17,901 nucleotides of DNA from Clostridiales bacterium (GCA_021202515.1 JAJQCW010000039.1:1-17901); one strand, 5' to 3'; positions 3,289 to 17,748 are shown, counted from the stretch's first letter. Notes: a model not told the origin generated them from the sequence alone. Numbers and translations are program-made.

Positions 3289-4464
3289 TTGGTTGACTGG
3301 CAAATGAGCGACACTGATATCCCAAAACTGAAAATTGCGATGTTGGGACACAAGCGCATTCCGTCAAGAGAGGGCGGGATTGAAGTCGTTGTGGAAGAAT
3401 TGGCCGTTCGTATGGCCGACAAAGGGCACCAGGTCACCTGCTACAACCGCAGGGGGCATCATGTTGCCGGCGCTACTTATGACAGCAGTCTCTCCGCTCG
3501 CCTGCTCCATGCCGGGGTCAGGGTCAAACAGGTGCCTACCATCGACTGCAAAGGTCTTGCCGCACTGACGTCCTCGCTTTTCGCGGCCTTGGCAGCCGCC
3601 TTTGGCGACTATGACGTGGTCCACTTTCATGCAGAAGGTCCCTGCGCCATGATGTGGCTCCCCAAGCTGATGGGAAAACACTGTGTCGCCACCATACACG
3701 GTCTGGACTGGCAGCGAGCCAAGTGGAAGGGCGGTTTTGGCGAAAAGTACATCATACTGGGCGAAAAGGCTGCCGTCCGGTTTGCTGACGAGATCATCGT
3801 TCTCAGCGAGGGCGTACAGACCTATTTTCGGGACACCTATGGCCGGGAAACGACCCGCATCCCCAACGGAGTGACCAAACCGAAACCGTATCCTGCGGAG
3901 CTGATCCGGCAAGCCTATGGGTTGGAAAAGGACAGCTATCTGCTGTACCTGGGCAGACTTGTGCCTGAAAAGGGCGCTGCCGCCCTGATCAATGCTTTCC
4001 GGGGCGTGCGGACCGACAAACGGCTTGTCATCGCAGGCGGTTCTTCCGATTCCGACCAATTCGTGGAGGAGCTGCATCGGCTGGCCGCTGGCGACAGCCG
4101 GATCATCTTCACCGGATTTGTACAGGACCAGCGATTGGCGGAACTGTACAGCAACACTTACCTCTACGTGCTGCCCAGCGACGTGGAGGGAATGCCCCTG
4201 ACCTTGCTGGAAGCGCTGAGCTACGACTGCTGCTGCGTCACGTCAGATATTGCGGAGTGCGCCTCCGTGTTGGGCGGACACGGCATGACCTTCCCCAAGG
4301 GCGACATCGCCGCCCTTCGGGAGACATTGCAGACCCTGTGTGACGACGAGGCCACGGTGCAAAACTGCCGAAGGGGTGCTTCCGAGTTCGTCTGCGGAAC
4401 CTATCAATGGGATACTGTCGTAGATCAGACCCTGGAGATTTACAGAGCGAGCATGAAGAAATGA
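3289..4464 (+). CDS. GT4-family glycosyltransferase with DUF1972-like N-terminus (WchF/RgpA-like architecture)
   Basis: The N-terminal motif IAMLGHKRIPSREGGIEVVVEELAVRM is followed by C-terminal GT1/GT4 motifs (LGRLVPEKG..., PSDVEGMPLTLLEALS). The start is uncertain. TTG 3289 lies 5 nt after AAGGTG (3278-3283), and ATG 3304 and ATG 3340 are in-frame alternatives. Confidence 0.88.
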   Translation: MVDWQMSDTDIPKLKIAMLGHKRIPSREGGIEVVVEELAVRMADKGHQVTCYNRRGHHVAGATYDSSLSARLLHAGVRVKQVPTIDCKGLAALTSSLFAALAAAFGDYDVVHFHAEGPCAMMWLPKLMGKHCVATIHGLDWQRAKWKGGFGEKYIILGEKAAVRFADEIIVLSEGVQTYFRDTYGRETTRIPNGVTKPKPYPAELIRQAYGLEKDSYLLYLGRLVPEKGAAALINAFRGVRTDKRLVIAGGSSDSDQFVEELHRLAAGDSRIIFTGFVQDQRLAELYSNTYLYVLPSDVEGMPLTLLEALSYDCCCVTSDIAECASVLGGHGMTFPKGDIAALRETLQTLCDDEATVQNCRRGASEFVCGTYQWDTVVDQTLEIYRASMKK

Positions 4465-5561
4465 TACGAGTATTACAGTGCGTCAATAATATGCACAGAG
4501 CCGGGCTGGAAACCATGCTGATGAATTATTATCGCAGCATGGACCGCACCAGGCTCCAGTTCGATTTTCTGACCCATCGGCCGGAAAAAAGCGACTACGA
4601 TGACGAAATACTGGCACTGGGCGGCAGAGTGTTTTATGCGCCACGGCTGCTCCCCCAAAACTACCCCACGTACTTTCGCTACATGAAGCAGTTTTGGGCG
4701 GACCACCCGGAGTATCAAATCGTCCACGCGCACATCGACTCCATGAGCTATCTCCCGCTGCTGACCGCGAAGGAAGCTGGCGTCCCGGTGCGCATCGCCC
4801 ACAGCCACAACACCTCCATCGACCTGGACTATAAATACCCGCTGAAGCTCTTTTTTAAGGGCAGGCTCTCCTCTGTCGCAAACTACCGCTGTGCCTGCGG
4901 TCAGGAGGCGGGAAAATTCCTGTTCGGCGACGAGGACTTCACTGTGATCCCCAACGCCATCGAAGGGGACCGCTTTCTGTTCGACGCCAGGACCCGCGAG
5001 GAAATGCGCGCAGAACTGGGGATCGCACAGGACGAGTTCGTCATTGGCCACGTGGGGCGGTTGTGTCATCAAAAAAATCACCGTTTTTTGTTGAAAATAT
5101 TTACAAGCGTTTTGAAGCAGCGGCCCAACGCCCTCCTGCTCCTGGTGGGTACAGGGGAAAAGGAATCCGCCATCAGGCGGCAGGCCCAGGAGCTGGGCAT
5201 CGACAGTCACGTGCGCTTTTTGGGCAGCCGGGGCAACGTGGACCAATTATACCAGGCGATGGACGTACTGGTGTTGCCCTCCCTGTTTGAGGGGGTCCCT
5301 GTGGTGGGAATCGAAGCACAGTTTTCTGACCTGCCCTGCGTTTTTTCGAACAAAGTGCCGAATGAGGTAAAAATCAGCGAGAAAACCGTCTTTCTCTCGC
5401 TGGAGCAGCCGCCGGAGGTCTGGGCTGAGACCATCCTGGACTGTGAAAAAACGCCGCGGGTCCGGGGCGGGGAAGCCTACCGCTCCACCAGGTACAATAT
5501 CGAGAACGCCCATTCCACTTTGGAGGACTACTACATGGCGATTGCCGAAACACTCCCATAA
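4461..5561 (+). CDS. GT4-family glycosyltransferase, EpsF-like
   Basis: ATG 4461 overlaps the upstream stop as ATGA. The N-terminus MIRVLQCVNNMHRAGLETMLMNYYRSMDRTRLQFDFL is typical of EpsF-type GTs. The GT1 core is GRLCHQKNH...LPSLFEGVPVVGIEAQ. I rejected the track start at 4407 as an in-gene extension. Confidence 0.9.
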   Translation: MIRVLQCVNNMHRAGLETMLMNYYRSMDRTRLQFDFLTHRPEKSDYDDEILALGGRVFYAPRLLPQNYPTYFRYMKQFWADHPEYQIVHAHIDSMSYLPLLTAKEAGVPVRIAHSHNTSIDLDYKYPLKLFFKGRLSSVANYRCACGQEAGKFLFGDEDFTVIPNAIEGDRFLFDARTREEMRAELGIAQDEFVIGHVGRLCHQKNHRFLLKIFTSVLKQRPNALLLLVGTGEKESAIRRQAQELGIDSHVRFLGSRGNVDQLYQAMDVLVLPSLFEGVPVVGIEAQFSDLPCVFSNKVPNEVKISEKTVFLSLEQPPEVWAETILDCEKTPRVRGGEAYRSTRYNIENAHSTLEDYYMAIAETLP

Positions 5562-5643
5562 TCAGCCGCGCCCTCCCCTGTCGCACCGTTTGGAATCCAA
5601 AAGACGCATCCCCACACCGTTGGCAAGAACGTGGAGGTATCCA

Positions 5644-6645
5644 TTGGCTGAAAAAATTGACTTTGTGATCACCTGGGTGGACGGGGCAGACCCGGCGTGG
5701 CTGGCGCAAAGGACGCAGTACTGCCCTGCCGACCAGAACAACGGCAGCACCGACAACCGCTATCGGGACTGGGGCTGGCTGCCCTACTGGTTCCGGGGCG
5801 TGGAGCAATACGCTCCCTGGGTGAACCGCGTGTTCTTCGTCACCAACGGGCAGTGTCCCGCCTGGCTGAACCTGGACCACCCCAAGCTGCGGTTCGTTCG
5901 GCACAGCGACTACATCCCGGCGGAATACCTCCCCACGTTCAACTCCAATGTGATCGAGCTGTTCCTGAACCGGATACCTGACCTGTCGGAACACTTTGTG
6001 CTGTTCAACGACGATATGTACCTGTTCGCCCCAGTCCAGCCCTCCGACTTCTTCCGGGAGGGGGTCCCCTGCGAGATCCCATCCATGACGACCATCGACG
6101 GGTTCGACCCGGAGGACGTGTTCCCTCACACCATGCTCAACAACATGGCTGTCCTCAACCAGAACTTCCAAAAGTCCGCCGTGCTCAAGCGGTATGCCGG
6201 AAAGTTTTATCGTCCCTGCTACGGGAAATACTTTATAAGCAACCTTCTGTTGACCCCCTTCCAATACTTCTCCGGGTTTCAGGACCTGCACTTCGCCACC
6301 TCCCACTGCAAATCCACCTTCGACCTGGTGTGGAACGTGGCGGAAAAACAACTGCTCCGCTGCGCGGCCAACCGCTTTCGCAGCAGCAGCGACCTCTCCC
6401 ACTGGATCTTCAAGTATTGGAACCTCTGCACAGGCAATTTCATCCCCCGCAGCGCCAGTTGGGGCCGCTGCTGCGAGCTGGGAAAGGACCCCCTGCCCCA
6501 GGTCCAGGCTGTGATGCAGTCAAGAAAATACAAGCTGGTCTGCCTGAACGACTCCCAGACAGAACTGGACTTCCGGGAGATCCAAACGCAGTTGACGCCG
6601 CTGTTCGCCCAGCGTCTGCCGGAAAAGTGCAGCTATGAGAGATAG
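5644..6645 (+). CDS. Stealth-family capsule polysaccharide phosphotransferase (hexose-1-phosphate transferase)
   Basis: CR1-like IDFVITWVDGADPAW is present. CR2-like YAPWVNRVFFVTNGQCPAWLN...LPTFNSNVIELFLNRIPDLSEHFVLFNDDMYL is also present. There is no in-frame ATG before these motifs. TTG 5644 lies 6 nt after GGAGG (5633-5637). Confidence 0.8.
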   Translation: MAEKIDFVITWVDGADPAWLAQRTQYCPADQNNGSTDNRYRDWGWLPYWFRGVEQYAPWVNRVFFVTNGQCPAWLNLDHPKLRFVRHSDYIPAEYLPTFNSNVIELFLNRIPDLSEHFVLFNDDMYLFAPVQPSDFFREGVPCEIPSMTTIDGFDPEDVFPHTMLNNMAVLNQNFQKSAVLKRYAGKFYRPCYGKYFISNLLLTPFQYFSGFQDLHFATSHCKSTFDLVWNVAEKQLLRCAANRFRSSSDLSHWIFKYWNLCTGNFIPRSASWGRCCELGKDPLPQVQAVMQSRKYKLVCLNDSQTELDFREIQTQLTPLFAQRLPEKCSYER

Positions 6646-7372
6646 AGAACCCCTGACCGGGCTGATCGACTTTCATGCGCACATCCTCCCCGGTCTGGAC
6701 GACGGACCAAAAGACATGGCTGAAACGGAGGCCCTGCTGCGGCAGGCATATGGAGAAGGCATCCGCGTTATCTTTGCCACCTCCCACTACCGGCCCCAGC
6801 TTTGGCGGCATCCGCCGGAGCACTACTGGCATCAACTGGAGGCTGTACAGGCTCTAACGAAACAAATCGGCCTGGATTTGCAGATTTTGCCCGGCAACGA
6901 GATATTTTACAGCGGCGAGCTGATTCACGCGCTGGCGGACGGTCTCTGCCGTCCCCTGCGGAATCGCTTTGTTCTGCTGGAATTTGCCCCCGACCTTCCC
7001 TTTCCCCAAATGCTCCGGGCCATGGACATCCTGACTGCCAACCGTTACCGGCCTCTGGTGGCCCATGTGGAACGCTACGCCTGTATTCAGGCGCGGCCCG
7101 CCCTGGTCCGACAGTTGAAGGACGCAGGCGGCTGGGTCCAGGTAAACACGGGCAGCATCGCCGGGCCGCCTGCGCCACCGCCTGAGCGTATGACCGCCCG
7201 GCGGCTGCTCCGGGGCACGCTGATCGACGTCCTGGGGACCGACTGTCACCACGCCGTCCAGCGTCCCTCCTCCTATCAGGCGTGCACAGACTATCTTCTG
7301 CGGCACTGCTCAGAGGACTATGCCTGGAAGCTGCTGGTGGACGATCCGGGTGTGATTTTTCGAGAGCAATAA
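6635..7372 (+). CDS. cpsB: PHP-family Mn-dependent protein-tyrosine phosphatase (CpsB/YwqE type)
   Basis: N-terminal IDFHAHILPGLDDGPKDMAETEALL...ATSHY and later AHVERY and GTDCHH metal-ligand motifs. It overlaps the Stealth gene by 11 nt. Confidence 0.9.
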   Translation: MRDREPLTGLIDFHAHILPGLDDGPKDMAETEALLRQAYGEGIRVIFATSHYRPQLWRHPPEHYWHQLEAVQALTKQIGLDLQILPGNEIFYSGELIHALADGLCRPLRNRFVLLEFAPDLPFPQMLRAMDILTANRYRPLVAHVERYACIQARPALVRQLKDAGGWVQVNTGSIAGPPAPPPERMTARRLLRGTLIDVLGTDCHHAVQRPSSYQACTDYLLRHCSEDYAWKLLVDDPGVIFREQ

Positions 7373-7386
7373 AGGAACCGTGAGAA

Positions 7387-8622
7387 ATGCTACCTCAAAA
7401 GTCGAAAAATGATGATTTGTTGTTTTGCGGACTGATCGTTCTGTTTTGCGTTCAGGATCTCCTGCAATCCCTGATCGGCCCGTTTCGGGCTTTGGAAGAG
7501 CTGGTGGCGCTGAGTGTGGTCGTGCTGTTTTTTCTGGAGCTGTGCCAAACCCAGTTCACGTTTCGGTTTCAAACCAATACCCTCGTTATCCTGCTGTTTC
7601 TGGCGTTGTTTTTGCTGACAGGCGGCGTTTCCACCCTGCTCTTCGGTTCACAGCCCCTGTCCAACGTCCTCTCCGACATCCTGGTGTGGATGAAGTTCCC
7701 GGCGGCCATGGCCGTTGGATACCTGATGACCATGCACCGGAACAAAGCCGAGCGATACGCAGCGCTCATTCGCCTGTTGGACGTGGTGACGGCCTGTGTG
7801 ACGGTGCTGTTCCTGGCCGACCTGGTGCTACACATCTTCCCGGCGGACATCCGTTCTGGGCTGCGCGCCGTGAAGCTGTTTTATTCCGCTTACACCTATT
7901 GCGCTGCGGTCATGTGCTTTATCTGCGCCATTTACTTCCGTATGTACGAATTTTTAGGGGATCGGGTGCTGCTCCGCCTGCTGCCGCTGTGGGCCATCAT
8001 GGTCAGCACCCTGCGCTTCAAGGCGATTTGCGCCGTGTTCTTCATGGTGTTTGTCTTTTTGATCATCTGTCAGCGCCGCCGCGCCTTTGGCCCCCTGATG
8101 TGGGGGATGCTGGGCGCCGGGGGGCTGCTGCTGGGCATCCGCTCCATCCTGTACTACTATGTCACGCTGCAAAACGAGTCGGCCCGTGCGGCGCTGAGCA
8201 GCACAGCCCTCCAAATCGTCCGGGACTATTTCCCCCTGGGGACGGGCTTTGCCACCTTCGGCTCCGCCTTTTCCGCCGAGCCATACTCCAGGGTCTACGA
8301 GCTTTACCATATCAATCACATCTGGGGCATTTCTGAGACATATCACTCCTTTATTTCCGATTCCTTCTGGCCCTATCTGATGGGGGAAACTGGAATACTG
8401 GGGACCGTTTTCTATTGCGCTGCGCTGATCGTCATTTTCTGGCGTCTTTCCCGGCTGCGGTCGGTCAACGCTTTCGCCTATGGCTCCGCGTTGGTGTGTT
8501 TCATCTATCTGCTCATCTCCAGCACGGGAGAATCTGCGTTTACCAACACCTTCGGGGTCTATTTCGGGCTTTGGATCGGTGTCATGCTGTCGGAAGAGGG
8601 GATTTCCCATGAAGTGGCCTGA
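7387..8622 (+). CDS. wzy: Polytopic O-antigen/capsule repeat-unit polymerase (Wzy, O-antigen-ligase-like family)
   Basis: About 10-12 hydrophobic segments, with a large loop carrying ...DYFPLGTGFATFGSAFS..., typical of the Wzy_C/O-antigen ligase family. It sits next to wzx. Confidence 0.8.
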   Translation: MLPQKSKNDDLLFCGLIVLFCVQDLLQSLIGPFRALEELVALSVVVLFFLELCQTQFTFRFQTNTLVILLFLALFLLTGGVSTLLFGSQPLSNVLSDILVWMKFPAAMAVGYLMTMHRNKAERYAALIRLLDVVTACVTVLFLADLVLHIFPADIRSGLRAVKLFYSAYTYCAAVMCFICAIYFRMYEFLGDRVLLRLLPLWAIMVSTLRFKAICAVFFMVFVFLIICQRRRAFGPLMWGMLGAGGLLLGIRSILYYYVTLQNESARAALSSTALQIVRDYFPLGTGFATFGSAFSAEPYSRVYELYHINHIWGISETYHSFISDSFWPYLMGETGILGTVFYCAALIVIFWRLSRLRSVNAFAYGSALVCFIYLLISSTGESAFTNTFGVYFGLWIGVMLSEEGISHEVA

Positions 8623-10060
8623 CAAGCTCAAAAGCGCCTACCAGCAGCTTTCGGACGCAAAAAAAACTTCTATTTACTTTACCATCTGCAATTTTCTCCA
8701 GCGGGGCACCGCGTTCATCACCGTCCCCATCTTCACCCGGCTGCTGACCACCCAGGAGTACGGCGTCTACAGCGTTTACCAGACCTGGTTCGAGCTGCTG
8801 GTGGTCGTCACCTCGCTGAAGCTGCCCTACGAGGGACTGAACAACGGCCTGATCCGGTACGAGGAGGACAAAGACGGTTACGTCTCCTCCATCGCGGGGC
8901 TGATTTCGGTGATGACCCTGGGGTGGCTGGTGGTGTATCTGCTGTTCCGGCGGTGGATCGACCAGTTCATCGGCCTGTCCTCCCTGCTGATGGGGTTGAT
9001 GTTCATAGAGATCTTCTTCAACCCCCCGCTGTACCTCTGGACCAACCGGGAGCGATTCGACTTCCGCTACCGTGCGCCGGTGGCCGTCACCGTGGCCAGC
9101 ACCATCGTCTCGCCGGTCATCGCCATCGTTGCGGTGCTGTGTACCCCCTACAAGGCGGAGGCCCGTATCATCGCAACAGTCGCAGTGCAGGGAGTGTCGG
9201 GGGCGGCATTGTACGTCTACTTGCTGAAAAAAGGCGGAAAGTTCTTTAACGCCACTTATTGGAAGTTCGCCCTGCGGTTCAATCTGCCGCTCATCTTCTA
9301 TTACCTGTCTCAGACGGTGCTGAACCAGGCAGATAGAATCATGATAAACTACTACGAGGGGACAGGCAGCACCGCCATTTACTCGGTGGCTTACACTGCC
9401 GCCACGCTGACTCTGCTGCTGGTCTCCGCCATCAACGGCTCTTACAATCCGTGGATGTACAAGAAGCTCAAGGCCGGCGCTTACGGTGAGATTCGAAAGC
9501 AGTCCACCCTGATCTGTCTGATGCTGGGCGTGGTGGTCCTCCTGATGACGGCGTTCGCGCCGGACCTGGTGGCGCTGCTGGCCACAGGGGAATACCAGAG
9601 CGCCATTTGGGTCATCCCGCCGGTAGCGGCAAGCGTGTTTTTCGTCTTTTTGTATATGCTCTTCGCCAACGTGGAGATGTACTACGGAGAGACCCGGCTG
9701 ATCCCCGCCGTGTCCATCATCAGCGCAGGGGCCAATCTGGTGCTCAACGCCATCTTCATTCCCCTGTTCGGCTTCCTGGCTGCCGGATGGACCACGCTGG
9801 TGAGCTACGTGCTGCTGACCCTGCTCCACTTCCTCGTGATGAAACGGGCCTGCCGCCGCCACAGCGTGGAAGAAAACGTATTTGCCGAAAAGCGGCTCGC
9901 CGTCCTGACCGTGGCGGTGATTGTGGGCTGCTTTGCCATGATGGCCCTTTACCGGGTGGGATACTGGCGATATTTGGTGTTCCTGCTGGCGGGGCTGGCA
10001 GGGATTTGGAAGCGGAAGTCGTTGCTGGCACTGCTCAAAAAAGGAACCGGGGAGGAATAA
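8609..10060 (+). CDS. wzx: MOP-superfamily polysaccharide flippase (Wzx)
   Basis: ATG 8609 lies 7 nt after GAGGGG (8596-8601) and overlaps the wzy stop by 14 nt. The protein is 483 aa and polytopic, with an N-terminus ...FTICNFLQRGTAFITVPIFTRLLTTQEYGVYSVY typical of Wzx/RfbX. I rejected the track start at 8480. Confidence 0.88.
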   Translation: MKWPDKLKSAYQQLSDAKKTSIYFTICNFLQRGTAFITVPIFTRLLTTQEYGVYSVYQTWFELLVVVTSLKLPYEGLNNGLIRYEEDKDGYVSSIAGLISVMTLGWLVVYLLFRRWIDQFIGLSSLLMGLMFIEIFFNPPLYLWTNRERFDFRYRAPVAVTVASTIVSPVIAIVAVLCTPYKAEARIIATVAVQGVSGAALYVYLLKKGGKFFNATYWKFALRFNLPLIFYYLSQTVLNQADRIMINYYEGTGSTAIYSVAYTAATLTLLLVSAINGSYNPWMYKKLKAGAYGEIRKQSTLICLMLGVVVLLMTAFAPDLVALLATGEYQSAIWVIPPVAASVFFVFLYMLFANVEMYYGETRLIPAVSIISAGANLVLNAIFIPLFGFLAAGWTTLVSYVLLTLLHFLVMKRACRRHSVEENVFAEKRLAVLTVAVIVGCFAMMALYRVGYWRYLVFLLAGLAGIWKRKSLLALLKKGTGEE

Positions 10061-10064
10061 ACCA

Positions 10065-11153
10065 ATGTCGGAACAACGCCGGACCCAGCGAGGTCTGGGC
10101 TATTTCAACGCGATTTACGGATACGGAATGTTGATGGTGATCTTTGTACACACCATTTCCTTCAACAGCGCGTTTTTCTATTCCAATTTTGTGTTTTACG
10201 GGTGGTTTTCCGTCCTGGGTTCCGCCTACATGGTGCTCTTTTTCCTGCTCAGCGGCTACGGGTTCAACCCGTCGCCTGCCAGAAAATCGCTCTCCTTCAA
10301 CTTTCGCACCCTGCTGAAACCCTACTATATCACCGCGGCGGCGGTGCTGCTGGCAAAGCTAGTCCTCTCCTTTGTGCGGCACCGCTCCTTCTGGGCGCAC
10401 GGGGGAGAATTTCTCCTGACCTACGCCCTGGGCCTGAACTTCGAGGGCGGCGGCACGCTGTTCGGCGTCCCGGTGGAGAGCATCAGCATCCTGTGGTTCC
10501 TGTGGGCGCTCTTTGAGGCCCGCTGCCTGTTCAACTGCCTGGCCCACCTGAAAGACCGGCGGCTCACCTACTGTCTTTCCTTCGCCTGCACGCTGCTGGG
10601 CTACTGCATGATGCAGTTCTCCGCAGTCTGGCCCTTTGTCATCCACATCGGCCTGATGGCCACCGGCTGGGTGGCCCTGGGCAACCTGATCCGGGAGGAA
10701 CACCTGCTGGACAGGAAACTGCCCCTGATCCCGCTGCTGATTCTGGCAGTTCTGAGCCTGAACACCTTTTTGCGCAGCCATACCGACCTGATTCGAGGCG
10801 AGTTGAGCGGCGGTCCGCTGGATGTCCTCGGCCTCACCTGCTTGGCTGTTCTCCTGTTGCACTTCTTTGACTGGCTCACGTCCAAAACACTGGATTCCGC
10901 CGCCAACCACTTCTTTGCCGCCATTGGCGTGAACAACATCTGGATCATCTGCATCCACGCCTTTGAAAAGGTCATCCTGCCCAACTACAAATTTTTGGAA
11001 TGGTTCCCCAACAGCATCCTGCTCCAGACAGTGTTGATGTTTACGTCGCGCACACTATTTATCGCAGTCGTCTATTTGCTGCTCCAAGCGGGGCGAGAGC
11101 TGCTGCGGAAATTCCGCAGACGCGGCAGGAAAAAGGTGACCATCGAACTGTAA
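10065..11153 (+). CDS. Acyltransferase family 3 (AT3, OatA/OafA-like) integral membrane acyltransferase with no fused SGNH domain
   Basis: TM1 His context MLMVIFVHT and the FFLLSGYGF motif are present. The protein is polytopic and 362 aa. SD GGAGGAA lies 9 nt upstream. Confidence 0.85.
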   Translation: MSEQRRTQRGLGYFNAIYGYGMLMVIFVHTISFNSAFFYSNFVFYGWFSVLGSAYMVLFFLLSGYGFNPSPARKSLSFNFRTLLKPYYITAAAVLLAKLVLSFVRHRSFWAHGGEFLLTYALGLNFEGGGTLFGVPVESISILWFLWALFEARCLFNCLAHLKDRRLTYCLSFACTLLGYCMMQFSAVWPFVIHIGLMATGWVALGNLIREEHLLDRKLPLIPLLILAVLSLNTFLRSHTDLIRGELSGGPLDVLGLTCLAVLLLHFFDWLTSKTLDSAANHFFAAIGVNNIWIICIHAFEKVILPNYKFLEWFPNSILLQTVLMFTSRTLFIAVVYLLLQAGRELLRKFRRRGRKKVTIEL

Positions 11154-11295
11154 GCTCTGCCGCAGGCCGGGTGTGCCCGTCTGCGGAAAAGCCATATATT
11201 CCCCTTTCTGGCGGAGGCGCACACACGCAGCCGTTTTAAGGTGGCTCTTGCGGGTATTGTTCCCCGCTGTTGCAAGAAGAAATGAGGTATGTAAA

Positions 11296-11541
11296 ATGAC
11301 AGTAGCTGAATTTAACGACAAAGTGATTGAGATCGTCCGCGATTCCTTCGATTTCAGCGAGGGGACCGAAATCACGTCGGAGTCCAAACTGCTGGAGGAC
11401 CTGGGTATGAGTTCCCTGGCGATTTTGGCGATGATCTCCGACCTGGAGGACGCCTTTGACGTGCGCATCCCCACCCGAAAGCTCTCCAAAATCGTGACCG
11501 TGGGCGACTTGCAGCAGTTCATCCTGAACAAACTGGTGTGA
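11296..11541 (+). CDS. Acyl/peptidyl carrier protein (DltC/ACP-like, 81 aa)
   Basis: ATG 11296 lies 7 nt after GAGGT (11284-11288). The phosphopantetheine-site context is LLEDLGMSSLAILAMISDLEDAF, and the size and acidity are those of a four-helix carrier protein. I rejected the track start at 11173. Confidence 0.85.
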   Translation: MTVAEFNDKVIEIVRDSFDFSEGTEITSESKLLEDLGMSSLAILAMISDLEDAFDVRIPTRKLSKIVTVGDLQQFILNKLV

Positions 11542-11547
11542 CTTCCG

Positions 11548-12474
11548 ATGGAACGCATCAAACAAAGGCGCGTCTGGCTGTTCGCTCTGGTGGGAATCCT
11601 TGTGCTGTGCTGCGTGGTGGCGGCGGTGTTCTTCCTCCGGTCCCGCACCACTGCGGTGAACGCATCGGACATTGAAATTCGCACCACCTACGGGGACGAC
11701 GTGACGGCAGCGGAGGGCATCTGTTACCGGCCCGGCGAGACGGACACCAACTGCTATATGGACGTGGCGTATCAACAGACTGGCGAAGCCAAGCCGCTGA
11801 TGGTCTGCATTCACGGCGGCAGTTGGACCTCCGGCCAGCGCTCAGAACTGAACTCCTTCCTCTACACCTTCTCGGCGGAGGGATACGTGGTGGCAACCAT
11901 CGACTACGACCTGCACCCGGACACCACCCTGATGGGCGAGGTAGAGTGTGTCAGCGACGCGGTCTCCTACCTGGTCGAAAACGCCGCGACCTATGAAATC
12001 GACGCCTCCAACGTCGTCATCCTGGGCGACTCGGCGGGGGCGCAGTTGGCCCTGCGCTTCGCGGAGGAGTACGCGGCGGACCCGGAGCAGTATGATTTTA
12101 CCATCACCGCGGCCATCGACATCTTTGGCCCCACCGACTTGGAACACCTGATTTATTACTGCGAAGGCGATACCCTGACCTATTTCATCGAACACCCGGA
12201 GATCGTTGATGGGACGGAGAACTCCGACATCATCACAGAGATCCACAAATTTGACGTGATTTACAACATCAGCAGCGACATGATGCCCATCCTGATCGTC
12301 CACGGCACAGAGGATTCCACTGTGCCCATGACCATATCAGACCGTTTTTATAAAGCGCTTCAGGAGGCGGGCGTTGAGGTGCAGTATGAGCGGATCGTGG
12401 GTATGACCCACAGCGTTCAAAACGACAAGCTTATCCCCGTCTGCGACGCTTTCCTGAACGAACATGTAAAGTAA
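11548..12474 (+). CDS. N-terminally membrane-anchored alpha/beta-hydrolase (fold-3 / BD-FAE-like esterase or acyltransferase)
   Basis: It starts 6 nt after the carrier stop. The TM helix is WLFALVGILVLCCVVAAVFFL. Catalytic-type motifs are the oxyanion CIHGGSW, the nucleophile elbow GDSAG, VHGTEDSTVP and GMTHS. Confidence 0.85.
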   Translation: MERIKQRRVWLFALVGILVLCCVVAAVFFLRSRTTAVNASDIEIRTTYGDDVTAAEGICYRPGETDTNCYMDVAYQQTGEAKPLMVCIHGGSWTSGQRSELNSFLYTFSAEGYVVATIDYDLHPDTTLMGEVECVSDAVSYLVENAATYEIDASNVVILGDSAGAQLALRFAEEYAADPEQYDFTITAAIDIFGPTDLEHLIYYCEGDTLTYFIEHPEIVDGTENSDIITEIHKFDVIYNISSDMMPILIVHGTEDSTVPMTISDRFYKALQEAGVEVQYERIVGMTHSVQNDKLIPVCDAFLNEHVK

Positions 12475-12515
12475 AGGACCGCGCAACCCCGTTTTAGCAG
12501 GAAGGAGAACCCAAA

Positions 12516-13937
12516 ATGTCTGTTCCAACTACGTTCCACGAATTTTTCCGGCGCTCAAAAGCAAAGTATAAGGAGACGGGGCTTCCGCCGTTCAAATATA
12601 TGGAGGGCCGGGAGGTCGTGTCTGTCTCCGCAGAGAAATTTTTCAGCGACCTGGCAGCTCTGGCGGAGGAGTTTGTGCGCCGCGGCTACGCCGACCAGCA
12701 CATCGGCCTGATGGGAAAGAACTCCTATCTCTGGATGCTCACCTACTGCGCGCTGATGGAGGCCGGTGCGGTCCCCATTCTGCTCAGCCGAGATTTGAAC
12801 CCCCGCGAGGTCGCTGAATACTGCAAAAAGACAGACACCTGCACCGTGGTGTGTGACGAAGCGGCGTCCCGGAACGTGCCCACAGAGGCGGGTCTCTGCG
12901 CCGCGCCCATGGCAAAGGCCGCTGTCCCCGCCACCGGGGTTTCCCTTCCCACGAGGGACCCGGATGCGCTGGGCACCATTCTGTTCACCTCCGGCACCAC
13001 AGGGGACGCGAAAGCGGTCATGCTCTCCATCAAGGGGCTGCTCACCGCTTTTTGGACGCCCATCAAGCCTTACCGCACGTTTGTGACCGGGCTGACCGTC
13101 ATGCCTTACCACCATCTGGCCGGGTTTGGCACGGCGGCGGATTCCTTCCCCCGCGGCTCCACCAACGTCATCGGGGAAAGCCCCAAGTATCTGATGCGGT
13201 ATATCCGCGCCGCAGAACCGGAATATATGCTTGTCGTACCGGAGCTGATGGAGGTCATGGCCCAGCGTCTGCGCACGGCAAAGCCTGGAGAAAACCCGCT
13301 GGGGAAGGTGCAGATGCTGTACTGCGCCGGCGCCAAGTTCCCGGAGGATACGGTAAAAATCTTCTCGGAACACAACATTGAGCTTTGGCACGTCTATTCC
13401 GCCTCGGAAGCGGGTGGGTATGGCATCATCCACCCGTTGGATGTGAACAACCCCACCTGTCTTGGTCCCATCGACGAGGTCCTTGAGGGCAAAATCGTCG
13501 ATGGCGAGCTGCTCCTGCGGGGCGACACCGTGATGATGGGGTATTACAAGGACCCCGAGGCCACCGCCGCTGTGCTGCGTGACGGCTGGTATCACACGGG
13601 GGATCTCTTCCGGGTGGATGAACGCGGCTACTATTACATGACCGGCCGGAAGAAAAACCTCATCATCCTGTCCAACGGCGAGAACGTCAGCCCGGAGGAA
13701 CTGGAAACGATGCTGCGGGGCTGCCCCTTTGTGGAAGAGGTCCGCGTCAAGGAGAAAAACAACTTCCTCTGCGCAGAAGTTTTTTCCACGGAGAACACTG
13801 ATGCGGCACGGAAAGCGGTGGAGGAGTTCCTGGACCAGCAGAACGACGCCCTTCCCACCTATAAACAGATCCATTTTCTCGAATTTCGGGATGCGCCGTT
13901 TGAGAAAACCGCCCTCGGCAAAATCAAGCGCGCATAG
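12516..13937 (+). CDS. ANL-superfamily adenylate-forming ligase (DltA/acyl-carrier ligase-like), copy 1
   Basis: AAGGAG lies 8 nt upstream. Core motifs are TSGTTGDAKAVML, YSASEAGG, GWYHTGDL, GRKKNLIILSNGENVSPEELE and GKIKRA. Confidence 0.9.
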   Translation: MSVPTTFHEFFRRSKAKYKETGLPPFKYMEGREVVSVSAEKFFSDLAALAEEFVRRGYADQHIGLMGKNSYLWMLTYCALMEAGAVPILLSRDLNPREVAEYCKKTDTCTVVCDEAASRNVPTEAGLCAAPMAKAAVPATGVSLPTRDPDALGTILFTSGTTGDAKAVMLSIKGLLTAFWTPIKPYRTFVTGLTVMPYHHLAGFGTAADSFPRGSTNVIGESPKYLMRYIRAAEPEYMLVVPELMEVMAQRLRTAKPGENPLGKVQMLYCAGAKFPEDTVKIFSEHNIELWHVYSASEAGGYGIIHPLDVNNPTCLGPIDEVLEGKIVDGELLLRGDTVMMGYYKDPEATAAVLRDGWYHTGDLFRVDERGYYYMTGRKKNLIILSNGENVSPEELETMLRGCPFVEEVRVKEKNNFLCAEVFSTENTDAARKAVEEFLDQQNDALPTYKQIHFLEFRDAPFEKTALGKIKRA

Positions 13938-14027
13938 GGAAGGTACAGGGAGGGGCAAAGCCCCGCATAGAGCGCAGCTTCACTGCTTGACAGCAGAATA
14001 CCGCTTGTCGGCAAAGGAGAACAAAAA

Positions 14028-15449
14028 ATGTCTGTTCCAACTACATTCCACGATTTTTTTCAGCGTTCAAGAGAAAAATATGAAGAGACGGGACTTCCGC
14101 CGTTCAAGTATATGGAGGACCGAGAGGTCGTATCTGTTTCCACAGAGGAATTTTTCAGCGACCTGGCGGCTCTGGCCGAGGAGTTTGTTCGCAGCGGTTA
14201 TGCAAACCGGCACATCGGCCTGATGGGGGAGAACTCCTACCTCTGGATGCTCTCTTACTGTGCGCTGCTGGAGGCCGGCGCGGTTCCCATTCTGCTCAGC
14301 AAGGACCTGAACCCCCAGGAGATCGCCGAATACTGCAAAAAGACGGACACCTTTACGGTTGTGTGTGATGAGACGGTGTTCCAGAAAGTGTCCACAGTGG
14401 CTGGACTCTGTGCCACGCCTATGGTCAAGGCTTCCACTCCCGGCACCGGGGCCACTCTCCCCACGCGGGACCCGGAAGCGCTGGGCTGTATTCTGTTCAC
14501 CTCCGGCACCACAGGGGACGCGAAGGCGGTCATGCTCTCTGTTAAGGCGCTGCTTATCGATTTTTGGACCCTCGTCAAGCCACACCGCACCTTTGAGACG
14601 GGGTTGACCGTCATGCCCTACCACCATCTGGCCGGATTCAGCGTTGCCGGGGATTTCTTCCCCCGCGGCTCCACCAACTTCATCGGGAAAAGTCCGAAAG
14701 ACCTGATGCGGTATCTCCGCGCCGGAGAACCGGAATATATGTTCGCCGTGCCGGAGATGGTGGAAATCATGGCCCAGCGGCTGCGCACGGCGAAACCTGG
14801 CGAAAAACCACTGGGAAAACTGCGGATGCTGTTCTGCGGCGGCGCCAAATTCCCGGAGGATACGGTGGAAACCTTCTCGGAACACGACATTGAGCTGTGG
14901 CACGTTTATTCTGCCTCAGAATCGGGCGGGCACGGCATTATCCACCCGGTGGATGTGAATAATCCCTCCTGCCTCGGCCCAATCGACGACGTCCTTGAAG
15001 CAAAAGTTGTGGATGGCGAGCTGCTCCTGCGGGGCGACACCGTTATGATGGGGTATTACAAGGACCCCGAGGCCACCGCCGCCGTACTGACCGACGGCTG
15101 GTATCACACCGGTGATTTGTGCCGGGTGGATGAGAACGGCAACTATTACCTGACTGGGCGGAAGAAGAACCTGATCATCCTCTCCAACGGCGAGAACGTC
15201 AGCCCGGAGGGACTGGAAGCGATGCTGCGGGCGTGTCCCTTTGTGGAAGAGGTCCTGGTCAAGGAGCAGAACAACTTCCTCTGCGCGGAGGTCCTCCCCA
15301 CGGAGAACACCGCTGCTGCACGAAAAGCGGTGGAAGCGTTCCTGGAGGAACGGAACGACACGCTTCCCTCCTACAAGCAAATCCATTTTTTGAAGTTCCG
15401 GGACACACCGTTCGAGAAAACCGCCATTGGTAAAATCAAACGCGCATAG
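14028..15449 (+). CDS. ANL-superfamily adenylate-forming ligase, copy 2 (paralog of 12516-13937)
   Basis: It has the same length (473 aa) as copy 1 and aligns to it without gaps. I counted 380/473 identities by hand. The core motifs and the AAGGAG-8 nt-ATG context are the same. Confidence 0.9.
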   Translation: MSVPTTFHDFFQRSREKYEETGLPPFKYMEDREVVSVSTEEFFSDLAALAEEFVRSGYANRHIGLMGENSYLWMLSYCALLEAGAVPILLSKDLNPQEIAEYCKKTDTFTVVCDETVFQKVSTVAGLCATPMVKASTPGTGATLPTRDPEALGCILFTSGTTGDAKAVMLSVKALLIDFWTLVKPHRTFETGLTVMPYHHLAGFSVAGDFFPRGSTNFIGKSPKDLMRYLRAGEPEYMFAVPEMVEIMAQRLRTAKPGEKPLGKLRMLFCGGAKFPEDTVETFSEHDIELWHVYSASESGGHGIIHPVDVNNPSCLGPIDDVLEAKVVDGELLLRGDTVMMGYYKDPEATAAVLTDGWYHTGDLCRVDENGNYYLTGRKKNLIILSNGENVSPEGLEAMLRACPFVEEVLVKEQNNFLCAEVLPTENTAAARKAVEAFLEERNDTLPSYKQIHFLKFRDTPFEKTAIGKIKRA

Positions 15450-15586
15450 AGAAAACACAGGAAGTGGCAAATCCCCACAGGCAGGGAGCACAGCGCAGGA
15501 AGAAGCACAGCTTCGCAGGGAGAAGCGCAGCTTCGGAAGTGCCGCTTGACGGTAGAAGCGCCACTTGATAGCAAAGGAGTATTGGA

Positions 15587-17026
15587 ATGAACGTCATGGA
15601 AGAAGCGGAGCGTCAGGATCTCTCCCTCCGGCCCACCTATCTCTCCATCAACTTCAAATCGTTGTTTATGGAACTGCTGGACAAGCTCCCCATTGTCCTG
15701 CTGTGCGGCATCCTGGCGGGGCTGTTTTCCTTTTTGCTCTATGCGAATGTGATTGGCCCCAGTTATATTTCCACCACCAAAATCTATGTCCTGCCCCAGA
15801 CCGATGAGAGCACCATCACCTATTCCGACTTGGAGGTGGGGCAACAACTCACCAACGACTACATTGAGATCATCCAGGGACGCACCGTGGTGGAGGAAAC
15901 CATTGCGTTTTTTGACCTGGACGAAAGCTATGAGCAGTTTTGCAAGCGGCTGACCGTAGAAAATCAGAGCGACACCCGCATTTTGAGCATCTCCGTGGAG
16001 GACAAAGACCCCATCACCGCCAGAAATCTGGTCATCTACCTGCGCACCACCGCCATTTCCGCCATTGAGGACGGGATGTCCGTGGAGGGGATCACCGTCA
16101 TTGAAGAGGCCAACCTTCCGACGGACCCAGAGACCTCTTCCCTTTTCATCGCCGTTCTGGCGGCGTTTGTGGTCTGCTGCCTGATGGTCCTGGGCATCTG
16201 TATCCATTATATCGTCATTGACCGCATCGTCACTGCGGACGACATCGAACAACGGCTGGGGCTGACAGTGCTCGGCTCTATCCTGTACGAAAACCAGGAG
16301 CAGGGCATCAGCACTCCCTGGAAGCTGCCCCGCAGCGCTGGCCGCAGCGCGGAGGATTTCCGCTCTTTGCGGGCCAATATTGAGTTCTGCGGCGCGGAAA
16401 ACCACGTTTTTGCCTTTACGAGCTGCTCGCCCGGCGAGGGAAAATCCACCATCTCTCTCCGCATCGCTGTGGAACTGGCCAAAACCGGGAAGAGCGTCCT
16501 CTTTATCGACGCGGATATGCGGATGTCGGTGTTCAGCGACAAGCTGGGCATCCAGGAAAGCCAGAAAGTCGGCCTCTCCGAGGTGCTGTCCGGAAGGGAA
16601 CAGGCCGACGACCTGATTTATGAAAGCGACATTTCCGGTCTGTCCCTGTTGCTGGCCGGAAAACGCCCGCCTAACCCGGCGGGACTGCTCTCCCAGAAGG
16701 TGTTCCGCTCCCTGCTGGAGACGGCCCGTGACAGCTATGACTACGTGATTTTAGACACGCCGCCCATCGGAAGCGTCATCGACGGCGCGGTCATCGGCCA
16801 GTTGTGCGACGGGGTCGTGTTGATCATCGGCTCCAACATGGTCAGCGGAAGGATGGCTTCCAAAGCGATCCAGCAGTTGCAGCGGGCCAACTGCAAAATT
16901 CCCGGCGCCGTCCTCAACAAGGTCCGGATGTCCAATCGGACGATGTACGGCACCTATGGCACCAATAAGTACTACTACAACTCCTATACCGCTCATTACG
17001 GAGACGAATCGGGGAACGAGCAATGA
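15587..17026 (+). CDS. Fused polysaccharide co-polymerase (Wzz/CpsC-like, 2 TM) and BY-tyrosine kinase (CpsD-like) with C-terminal Tyr cluster
   Basis: AAGGAG lies 7 nt upstream. TM1 is PIVLLCGILAGLFSFLLYANVI and TM2 is LFIAVLAAFVVCCLMVLGICIHYIV. Walker A is SPGEGKST, A' is LFIDADMR and B is YVILDTPP. There are 7 Tyr in the last 27 residues. Confidence 0.9.
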   Translation: MNVMEEAERQDLSLRPTYLSINFKSLFMELLDKLPIVLLCGILAGLFSFLLYANVIGPSYISTTKIYVLPQTDESTITYSDLEVGQQLTNDYIEIIQGRTVVEETIAFFDLDESYEQFCKRLTVENQSDTRILSISVEDKDPITARNLVIYLRTTAISAIEDGMSVEGITVIEEANLPTDPETSSLFIAVLAAFVVCCLMVLGICIHYIVIDRIVTADDIEQRLGLTVLGSILYENQEQGISTPWKLPRSAGRSAEDFRSLRANIEFCGAENHVFAFTSCSPGEGKSTISLRIAVELAKTGKSVLFIDADMRMSVFSDKLGIQESQKVGLSEVLSGREQADDLIYESDISGLSLLLAGKRPPNPAGLLSQKVFRSLLETARDSYDYVILDTPPIGSVIDGAVIGQLCDGVVLIIGSNMVSGRMASKAIQQLQRANCKIPGAVLNKVRMSNRTMYGTYGTNKYYYNSYTAHYGDESGNEQ

Positions 17027-17748
17027 TAGAGAAGCTGCGTCAAGGAAAAGTCAGGCTCCTCTTGCTTTTGGCCGGTGTCTGCATTGTGGGGGGCCTGGTT
17101 TTGCTCGGGACCCATCTCGCGCGAGACAAAGAACCCCCTGTGATCTCCTACTCCGAAGCCAGGCTGACCCTTTCAGCGGAGGATGTGGCGGAGATCGAGG
17201 CGTTGGATTATTCCTGTCTGCTGGAGGATGTCACCGCCTACGATACACGGGACGGTGCGCTGGATGACCGCGTCATCGTGAAAAACTACCGGCTCAGCGA
17301 GGACGGCGTCTACGCAGTCGTCACCTATCAGGTGGCGGACCACAGCGCCAACTCCGCCACCGCCAAGCGCATCGTCTATATGGCGGAGGAGGTTTACGAC
17401 CCCGACTATAACGTACCGGTCGTTACCCTAACCACCGACACCATCACGGTCCCCATGGGGACCCTTCCGGACCTGGAGAACTACCTTGCGGAGCTGTCGG
17501 ATGAGTCGGACTCCTACCAGCAGTTGTTAGCGAATCTCACCATCTCCGGCGAGTACGATTTGTACACCCCTGGCGAATATGCACTGGCTCTCACGGTGAC
17601 AGACCAGGACGGCAACGTATCGGACCCGTTTTCCTTCACTCTGGTGGTGACAGAGCCGGAAGAATCAGAAGAATACGGGCAAGAAGCATACAATTCCGAG
17701 GAATACGAAGAATATTCCGAATACACTGACTACGACACAGAAGAATAA
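17023..17748 (+). CDS. N-terminally anchored protein with two Ig-like (DUF5011-like) repeats and an acidic Tyr-rich C-terminal tail
   Basis: ATGA overlap with the kinase stop. The TM helix is LLLLLAGVCIVGGLVLLGTHL. The repeats read A.D.RDGAL.DRV...GVYAVVTYQVADHSANSA and GEYALALTVTDQDGNVS. The last 31 aa contain 6 Tyr, 15 Asp/Glu and no basic residue. Confidence 0.75.
   Translation: MIEKLRQGKVRLLLLLAGVCIVGGLVLLGTHLARDKEPPVISYSEARLTLSAEDVAEIEALDYSCLLEDVTAYDTRDGALDDRVIVKNYRLSEDGVYAVVTYQVADHSANSATAKRIVYMAEEVYDPDYNVPVVTLTTDTITVPMGTLPDLENYLAELSDESDSYQQLLANLTISGEYDLYTPGEYALALTVTDQDGNVSDPFSFTLVVTEPEESEEYGQEAYNSEEYEEYSEYTDYDTEE

Follow-up and report, generated by a model that had tools for sequence, protein, structure and literature searches.

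Background

The locus described here raises the question of whether a membrane acyltransferase of the AT3 family can be fed with acyl groups that have been activated with ATP and loaded on a dedicated acyl carrier protein (ACP), instead of being supplied as acyl-coenzyme A (acyl-CoA). It lies in a stretch of 17,901 nucleotides (nt) from an uncultured Clostridiales bacterium of the gut (GCA_021202515.1 JAJQCW010000039.1:1-17901), the whole of which we call the window, and the part that concerns us (positions 10065 to 15449) holds five genes on the + strand, coding for an AT3 protein, an ACP, a membrane-anchored alpha/beta-hydrolase and two adenylating ligases of the ANL type. A preliminary description of this DNA had proposed that these five genes, placed between wzx and a chain-length/kinase gene, form a module for the decoration of an exported polymer. 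The five open reading frames (ORFs) are indeed found where it put them, on the + strand and with the lengths given (ORF listing), the flanking genes encode Wzx and a Wzz plus BY-kinase protein as claimed (profile searches), the gaps of 142 nt between the AT3 and ACP genes and of 6 nt between the ACP and hydrolase genes are both correct, and every motif quoted for the five genes occurs in the translations.

Two bacterial systems for the acylation of polymers have been described, MBOAT/SGNH and AT3-SGNH; Dlt uses a carrier protein, while the other MBOAT/SGNH pathways do without one and use acyl-CoA (PMC12148441). We found no description of a system made of an AT3 protein, a ligase and an ACP in the full-text literature searched, which covered few subscription-journal papers, and to that extent the earlier statement that this arrangement was not known as a described system holds. 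The answer that we favour, and that we consider reasonably probable from the sequences and models, is that the genes specify a Dlt-like, ATP- and carrier-protein-dependent transmembrane acylation of a surface glycan, built on an AT3 channel fed by acyl-ACP.

A conserved trio of AT3 protein, ligase and carrier

A scan of GTDB with the AT3 alignment, one genome per species, gave 33 loci, all of them from gut Clostridia (Blautia, Mediterraneibacter, Oliverpabstia, Fusicatenibacter, Dorea, Floccifex, and Lachnospiraceae and Oscillospiraceae metagenome-assembled genomes, MAGs), whose neighbouring genes were found by tblastn and by an iterative profile search over all ORFs. The AT3 gene is directly followed by an ANL gene and an ORF of about 80 codons for a PP-binding protein in 29 of these 33 species-level loci. 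The exceptions are three loci that are cut by a contig end or have no adjacent ligase of this type, and one lone AT3 gene; in one of those cut by the contig end (L010) the AT3 gene, the ACP gene and part of the hydrolase gene can still be seen. The linkage persists down to 24-27% AT3 identity, amid wholly different surrounding genes, the orthologs of the three proteins diverge in parallel (to about 35-40%), and in most trio loci the stop of the ligase gene overlaps the start of the ACP gene. An outgroup AT3 protein (E 2.6e-9) has neither an ANL nor an ACP gene nearby. The AT3 clade is small, since an exhaustive search of 1.84 billion representatives gave no more than 23 clusters at E<=1e-30 (183 at E<=1e-10); a plasmid search with one AT3 protein from the type-A loci (those with the order AT3-ANL-ACP) gave no match.

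The trio is found in Wzx/Wzy loci with a Stealth gene, and in about 25 species the start of the AT3 gene abuts or overlaps the stop of wzx within a conserved GT4-GT4-Stealth-Wzy-Wzx cassette. The two genes remain adjacent in L001-L030, and most related loci have them overlapping, the 3' end of wzx reaching into the start of the AT3 gene; in the window the Wzx stop and the AT3 start lie 4 nt apart. So tight a junction suggests the flipped repeat unit, or else the nascent polymer, as the acceptor. Two other trios stand in ABC-transporter glycan loci with GT2/GT4 genes (L033 and L036, the latter also with a Bac_transf initiator), and two more (L041 and L060) form AT3-ANL-ACP operons that stand alone, without glycan genes in their neighbourhood, a format reminiscent of the dlt operon. 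In the minimal trio loci the AT3 protein is the sole candidate acyltransferase.

Adjacency in nearly all species-level loci, the differing glycan contexts and a natural fusion (below) together uphold the proposal that AT3 protein, carrier and ligase are one functional unit. The neighbourhood census also places the gene set in glycan loci and not in lipid, nonribosomal peptide synthetase (NRPS) or polyketide synthase (PKS) loci. What must be corrected is the number of genes: the AT3-ANL-ACP core is real and the hydrolase recurs beside it, but the set of five is not fixed, and most carriers have the trio only.

Parts of the trio are multiplied in some loci. L033 (7880-12711) has three AT3 genes in tandem with one adjacent ligase and ACP, a second ligase lying 5 kb upstream, and L034 (9854-15471) has two complete AT3-ANL-ACP trios in tandem, which suggests that several different acyl decorations are placed on one polymer.

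A natural fusion of AT3 protein and ligase

One member of the AT3 family (P0142, 864 residues, 31% identical to the window AT3) consists of an AT3 protein followed by AMP-binding and AMP-binding_C_3 domains. Its 90% cluster contains two fused versions, which come from different assemblies (two diverged strains) and differ at many residues while sharing the same junction, as well as a split version of 362 + 498 residues. The fusion allele is one G shorter (cccTGaac instead of cccTGGaac), so that the AT3 stop is lost and the frame runs on into the ligase; the regions concerned are 181-2775 in L059 and 825-3420 in L060, and the fusion is followed by an overlapping ACP gene. Such a fusion is topologically sensible, because the C-terminus of the AT3 protein is predicted to be cytoplasmic, as would suit a fused cytoplasmic ligase.

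A proposed route for the acyl group

From the protein families and folds observed, the conservation of the linkage, the fusion allele and the charges that flank the helix of the hydrolase, we infer the following chemistry, with its donor, acceptor and acid. A cytoplasmic ANL ligase (present here as two paralogs) would adenylate a carboxylic acid, most likely not an amino acid but, for example, a fatty, hydroxy or aryl acid, and would attach it by a thioester to the phosphopantetheine arm on Ser40 of the ACP, a step to which the linkage and the translational coupling of the two genes point. The acyl-ACP would then dock at the cytoplasmic face of the AT3 protein, its arm entering the pore in place of the pantetheine of CoA; we propose this docking because of the linkage, the fusion and the fact that the minimal loci offer no other acyltransferase. 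The acyl group would cross the pore to a site at the outer leaflet made up of His29, His298 and Glu301, possibly by way of an acyl-tyrosine, for which Tyr120 on a conserved outer loop is a candidate by analogy with OatA and DltX/PatA, where such intermediates have been described (PMC12148441). In the lineage of the window it may next pass to Ser162 of the anchored, outward-facing hydrolase and from there to a hydroxyl of the Stealth-type sugar-phosphate polymer that Wzx would flip and Wzy polymerise, unless the hydrolase trims the decoration instead. In most related loci, which are without the hydrolase, the AT3 protein would acylate the glycan directly.

The AT3 membrane protein

The 362-residue product of the first gene (10065-11153) had been described as a polytopic AT3 acyltransferase with no SGNH domain fused to it. 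The assignment stands by way of homologs and fold, without a direct match to a family profile. Seven of eight aligned homologs scanned singly match PF01757 (best E 5.5e-13), including one that is 92% identical, and a profile search finds this domain on nearly all of 118 family members. An AlphaFold2 model built on 64 sequences has ten long helices (predicted local distance difference test score, pLDDT, 89.3; predicted template modelling score, pTM, 0.88), and its only probable PDB matches in Foldseek are human HGSNAT (probability 1.00, TM score 0.45-0.47) and GWT1. HGSNAT and the GPI acyltransferase GWT1 are solved members of the TmAT superfamily, which includes AT3 (PMC12423673). H29 (within VIFVHT) and F59, F60, S63 and G64 (the FFxxSG motif) are invariant in the 64 sequences, and Y87, H298 and E301 are likewise invariant in the clade.

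Ten transmembrane (TM) helices are predicted and the protein stops after TM10 with a basic tail, in agreement with the claim that no SGNH domain is fused to it. The basic N-terminus, the very basic C-terminal tail and the ten helices, read with the positive-inside rule, imply that both termini are cytoplasmic, and by the same rule H29, H298 and E301 should lie near the outer ends of their helices.

The ligases and the acid

The two 473-residue ANL enzymes (12516-13937 for copy 1, 14028-15449 for copy 2) are what they were said to be: both match AMP-binding (PF00501; 2.1e-36 and 1e-38 respectively) and AMP-binding_C_3, and both carry TSGTTGDAK, WYHTGD, GRKKNLI...GENVSPE and a C-terminal GKIKR. 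A further motif, GRKKNLIILSNGENVSPE, presumably relates them to the long-chain acyl-CoA / acyl-ACP synthetase group. The copies are 80% identical without gaps, with a ratio of nonsynonymous to synonymous substitution rates (dN/dS) of 0.18, and the two differ throughout their length, with a somewhat higher density of changes at residues 101-150 and 176-250. Copy 1 is the ortholog of the first ligase of a close relative (L007, 91% identity) and shares 35-39% identity with the ligases that stand beside AT3 genes in the distant loci compared. A second ligase occurs only in the window and in L007, two other relatives (L008 and L009) having one; from these comparisons, copy 2 is a recent, lineage-specific tandem paralog. 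Among the close relatives the ligases are 76-91% identical, as against 88-98% for the AT3 protein, the ACP and the hydrolase, which makes the ligase the fastest-changing gene of the module, and with one or two copies per relative their orthology is tangled (window 12516-15449, L007 12383-15344, L008 12422-13843, L009 12405-13826). This variability suggests a diversification of the acyl substrate at the level of strains.

As for the acid itself, the best PDB matches of the ligase are 4-chlorobenzoate-CoA ligase, malonyl-CoA synthetase and feruloyl/fatty-acyl-CoA synthetases, and among NCBIfam models it scores best with long-chain-fatty-acid-CoA ligase and MenE, in every case far under the cut-off. 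No DltA appears among its best 60 PDB or best 25 NCBIfam matches. In an alignment at about 25% identity, the segment MPYHHLAGF, which has no Asp, falls on His207 of 4-chlorobenzoate-CoA ligase, a position that we take to be A4, where DltA and NRPS adenylation domains have the Asp that binds the amino group. This motif and the fatty-acid-type carrier described below make an amino acid such as D-alanine unlikely; D-alanine, considered as a candidate substrate, was rejected on these two grounds and on the lack of DltA among the best matches, and the D-alanylation-like decoration that had earlier seemed attractive is accordingly disfavoured. To judge from the ligase and carrier sequences, the acid is more likely to be fatty, hydroxy, dicarboxylic or aromatic.

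Many type-A loci have, in addition, an AMP-binding gene of the long-chain-acyl-CoA-synthetase type (587-593 residues) about 8 kb upstream of the AT3 gene, at the edge of the cassette; it lies at 1912-3675 in L001, with equivalents in L004, L014, L017, L018, L022, L024-L026, L028, L038 and L039.

The carrier protein and the spacer before it

The 81-residue protein encoded at 11296-11541 is, as proposed, a carrier protein (PP-binding, PF00550, E 1.7e-8), with a predicted phosphopantetheine site at Ser40 (GMS-S-LA), at the start of helix II, that is invariant in orthologs at 35-37% identity. Its best NCBIfam and PDB matches are ACPs of type II fatty acid synthase (FAS), and each of the best 60 PDB matches bears the name of an acyl carrier protein from fatty-acid or related synthesis. 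With the DltC model the E value is no better than 0.012. Its dN/dS is 0.04-0.17.

A hairpin at 11160-11186 (+ strand) in the spacer between the AT3 and ACP genes folds as had been described, but it is not conserved: it is present only in the window and L010, the stretch being deleted in L007-L009, which are three of the four close relatives. A T tract is lacking, and the intergenic region is no more stable than shuffled sequences (z -0.6). The hairpin was for these reasons rejected as a terminator or regulatory element, and is not part of the module.

The anchored hydrolase

The gene at 11548-12474 encodes the 308-residue alpha/beta-hydrolase with a single N-terminal TM helix that had been recognised in the preliminary description (BD-FAE, PF20434, 1.6e-34; Abhydrolase_3, PF07859, 2.4e-19). 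That its catalytic domain would lie outside the cell had been thought probable, and the charges flanking the helix now agree in 12 of 12 close members (+1 to +4 before it, -1 to -6 after it), predicting an N-in, C-out anchor with an extracytoplasmic catalytic domain. H89, G90 and G91 (the HGG oxyanion motif), Ser162 (GxSxG), Asp256 and His288 are invariant in 14 hydrolase sequences.

The subfamily is rare, a profile search of 5.8 billion sequences giving only 14 relatives at E<=1e-20. The longer contexts that we read are four (L040, 37% identity; L055, 60%; L056, 35%; L057, 38%), and in each of them the hydrolase gene stands beside an AT3 gene of the clade with ACP and ANL genes; a scan of metagenome contigs with the hydrolase alignment gave only 12 short contigs, one of which (L043, 1.3 kb) shows the C-terminus of an AT3 protein followed directly by the hydrolase. 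It is not found in most trios, those of type A. From these sequence contexts the hydrolase appears to be a genuine partner of the module, recurrent yet optional. In a neighbour-joining tree drawn without support values, the hydrolase-bearing AT3 proteins fall on two branches at the base of the large type-A crown, a branching that would fit either one gain followed by loss or two gains. The gene order AT3-ACP-hydrolase-ANL is common to the window and L055; in the group of L040 the order is AT3-hydrolase-beta-helix protein-ACP-ANL, with the carrier gene 5' of the ligase gene as in the window.

The AlphaFold2 model of the hydrolase (pLDDT 89.2) has carboxyl and carbohydrate esterases of the HSL/BD-FAE type as its Foldseek neighbours (E to 5e-19). 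Since what it matches are short-chain and carbohydrate esterases, the fold cannot separate a transferase from an esterase, and we propose, from sequence, that the hydrolase either accepts the acyl group outside the cytoplasm and transfers it or acts as an editing esterase.

The three loci of the L040 group are Wzy loci with a glycerophosphotransferase gene. All have a pectate-lyase-like beta-helix protein encoded between the hydrolase and the ACP (L040 12010-16731, L056 8947-13654, L057 8894-12856), and two short-chain dehydrogenase genes follow directly 3' of the ligase gene (one before the contig end in L057); one may speculate that these dehydrogenases might alter the carrier-bound acyl group. 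Elsewhere, L036 has a GDSL/SGNH gene (15530-16465) two genes downstream of the ACP gene, and P0177 (733 residues), in the outer part of the AT3 family, is an AT3-GDSL fusion, so that different extracytoplasmic serine enzymes seem to have been recruited to the AT3 clade.

Weighing the explanations

Several observations weigh against an AT3 channel fed by acyl-ACP. The characterised AT3 proteins take acyl-CoA, and a review of the family concludes that the evidence favours acyl-CoA "rather than ... the acyl-carrier protein" as their donor (PMC9558356). The linkage and the fusion show that AT3 protein, ligase and carrier function together; they do not establish acyl-ACP as the direct donor of the AT3 protein. 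The fusion, moreover, is a one-nucleotide allele on low-coverage contigs, and being both young and from such contigs it is modest evidence. The closest structures of the hydrolase are esterases, not transferases, no phosphopantetheinyl transferase gene was seen in the window, and a DltX-like microprotein, considered as a candidate in the AT3-ACP spacer, was rejected for want of any plausible small TM ORF there. Finally, the window AT3 has no Pfam or NCBIfam match even at E<=10, its residues 18 and 70 are Tyr and Ser, against Arg or Lys in 88-92% of the clade, and of 26 polar or aromatic positions conserved in the clade it departs from the rest at 11, these two included. By its sequence it is the most aberrant member of the clade, and the Pfam miss is explained by its place in a divergent sub-branch with so many conserved residues replaced. 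Arg73 and Lys74 are kept, and the protein is still under purifying selection (dN/dS 0.14-0.17). We presume that Arg18 and the basic TM2-3 loop of the clade correspond to R14 and the RxxR motif of OafA, and the change to Tyr18 and Ser70 could mean that the entrance for the donor is altered or that the hand-off to the hydrolase is. The AT3 protein of L055 (6566-7672, 47% identity) also has no Arg at positions 18 and 70.

With these points in mind, one may suppose that two independent decorations share the locus, the AT3 protein being an ordinary acetyl- or succinyl-CoA O-acyltransferase and the ligase and ACP feeding a cytoplasmic acylation (for instance N-acylation of an amino sugar, as in V. 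cholerae O1 rfbKLMNO) or the hydrolase-fold protein, which would then be the acyltransferase. The donor used by all characterised AT3 proteins, the cytoplasmic action of the ACP and ligase sets of O-antigen and capsule loci, and the catalytic His29 retained in the window AT3 are in its favour, but we think it improbable, since neither the minimal loci nor the free-standing operons nor the fusion allele contain another acyltransferase capable of using acyl-ACP, since the link between AT3 protein, ligase and ACP is specific to the clade and outlasts changes of glycan pathway, and since the hydrolase is predicted to face outwards, away from the ACP, and is missing from most loci. A different proposal keeps acyl-ACP as the donor and makes of the hydrolase an editing or remodelling esterase, as Ape1 is beside PatA/PatB, the AT3 protein acylating the glycan in all lineages. 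Most loci do work without the hydrolase, its structural neighbours include BD-FAE-type gut enzymes among the esterases, and stand-alone AT3 proteins are known from the literature to act without an SGNH partner; we hold this proposal to be rather unlikely, considering that the hydrolase subfamily is confined to AT3 loci, usually right beside the AT3 gene, and that the AT3 proteins accompanied by it have changed conserved residues, as would fit an altered hand-off, neither point being decisive.

The remaining explanations concern what is transferred and to what. The four-part logic of the module resembles DltA/C/B/D, and the Stealth and glycerophosphotransferase genes predict anionic polymers, whose charge could be tuned by an aminoacylation of the D-alanylation type; the Asp that is missing from MPYHHLAGF, the matches of the ligase and the FAS-type carrier make this highly improbable. 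The trio could also modify a membrane glycolipid, a polymer of the lipoteichoic-acid type or a protein, its position in capsule loci being incidental, and the free-standing trios, which adjoin CW_binding_2 proteins or a STAS gene and have no glycan genes nearby, would agree with this; yet the AT3 gene is joined to wzx in the conserved cassette of some 25 species, and other trios lie amid glycosyltransferase and ABC-exporter genes, so that we consider such a target distinctly improbable. The explanation to which we return is the acylation of a surface glycan by an AT3 protein that receives its acyl groups from the carrier protein.

Relation to known systems

Functionally, the module is closest to Dlt, with which it has in common the pairing of an ANL ligase with a small carrier protein of its own, a polytopic membrane acyltransferase that would relay the group outward, an anchored extracytoplasmic serine enzyme in some lineages, the possibility of a free-standing operon and probable anionic surface polymers as targets. 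Yet in every feature that would make it a member of Dlt it is something else. The membrane part is AT3/TmAT and not an MBOAT protein such as DltB (there is no MBOAT gene in the window), the outer enzyme is an alpha/beta-hydrolase of the BD-FAE/HSL type, missing from most loci, instead of an SGNH-like DltD, the spacer has no counterpart of DltX, and ligase and carrier are of acyl type, neither a D-Ala-specific DltA nor of the DltC type.

The known AT3 proteins (OatA and OafA/OafB, and the stand-alone Oac, ExoZ/ExoH, WecH, IcaC and CmmA) have the same fold, the TM1 His and FFxxSG, they acylate exported glycans, and the stand-alone format exists among them; they draw acyl-CoA from the general pool without a dedicated ligase or carrier, whereas here ligase and ACP are nearly always adjacent, and the partner hydrolase differs in fold from the SGNH domain of the AT3-SGNH O-acetyltransferases. 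PatA/PatB/Ape1 and AlgI/J/F/X likewise keep the membrane relay and the extracytoplasmic serine enzyme separate, and show that an esterase can accompany the transferase, but these are MBOAT-based systems with acetyl-CoA as the donor and no carrier protein.

On the side of activation, V. cholerae O1 rfbKLMNO and similar sets also have a dedicated ACP and ANL ligase within a glycan locus, for an unusual acyl group. The substrates of these sets are nucleotide-sugar or amino-sugar precursors, which soluble acyltransferases modify in the cytoplasm, and they have no AT3 partner. AasS, Aas and the fatty acyl-AMP ligases (FAAL) are also ANL enzymes that load a free acid on a carrier protein and not on CoA; the ligase here is much shorter (473 residues), has its own ACP and belongs to a glycan locus, and no FAAL-type insertion is evident in it. 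That we are dealing with a second, evolutionarily independent system of carrier-protein-dependent transmembrane acylation, in which the AT3 proteins of this clade use a dedicated acyl-ACP and not acyl-CoA, seems to us about as plausible as its contrary.

The glycan locus in the window

The window is a single glycan locus on the + strand (ORF listing and profile searches). Upstream of the module, profile searches identify a GT4 of the DUF1972 type (3289-4464), a second GT4 (GT4b, 4407-5561), a Stealth hexose-phosphate transferase (5443-6645), a CpsB phosphatase (6635-7372), a Wzy-like polymerase (7387-8622) and the Wzx flippase (8480-10060; Polysacc_synt 4.2e-20); downstream of it they identify the Wzz plus BY-kinase fusion (15587-17026) and an Ig-like surface protein (17023-17748). 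Compared with close relatives, all five genes of the module are under purifying selection (dN/dS 0.04-0.26).

The GT4b and Stealth ORFs as listed extend by 58 and 119 nt into the ORFs upstream of them, and CR1 of the Stealth protein starts only at residue 70; the true starts of both are probably internal to the listed ORFs, and that of Wzx probably lies downstream of 8480. The window contains no gene for an initiating phosphoglycosyl transferase; at the equivalent upstream position the related locus L055 has a Bac_transf gene. A tRNA scan of the window found none. Near its 5' end there is a skipping-rope RNA (Rfam RF02924, 573-652 on the + strand, 75.5 bits, E 4.7e-17), with a PBECR3 nuclease gene (125-520) on one side and a zinc-ribbon tyrosine integrase gene (1352-2521) on the other, and from these three we recognise a mobile-element remnant at the 5' edge of the glycan locus.

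Significance

If our proposal is true, the AT3/TmAT channel can be fed by a protein-bound thioester, which would widen the range of acyl groups available for exported glycans and provide an independent system in which to study the passage of acyl groups across the membrane, acyl-tyrosine relays and carrier docking. The module is found in common gut commensals of humans and animals, and two cultured carriers, Oliverpabstia intestinalis BSM-380-WT-5A and Floccifex porci LKV-178-WT-2G, make the idea testable. The gut Clostridia in question (Blautia, Mediterraneibacter, Fusicatenibacter, Dorea, Oliverpabstia and Oscillospiraceae-like MAGs) could then esterify their surface glycans with acids for which no CoA pool exists, possibly fatty or aromatic acids derived from the diet or the host, and their fast-evolving, duplicated ligases would set strain-specific decorations on capsules whose chemistry shapes immune recognition and phage susceptibility.

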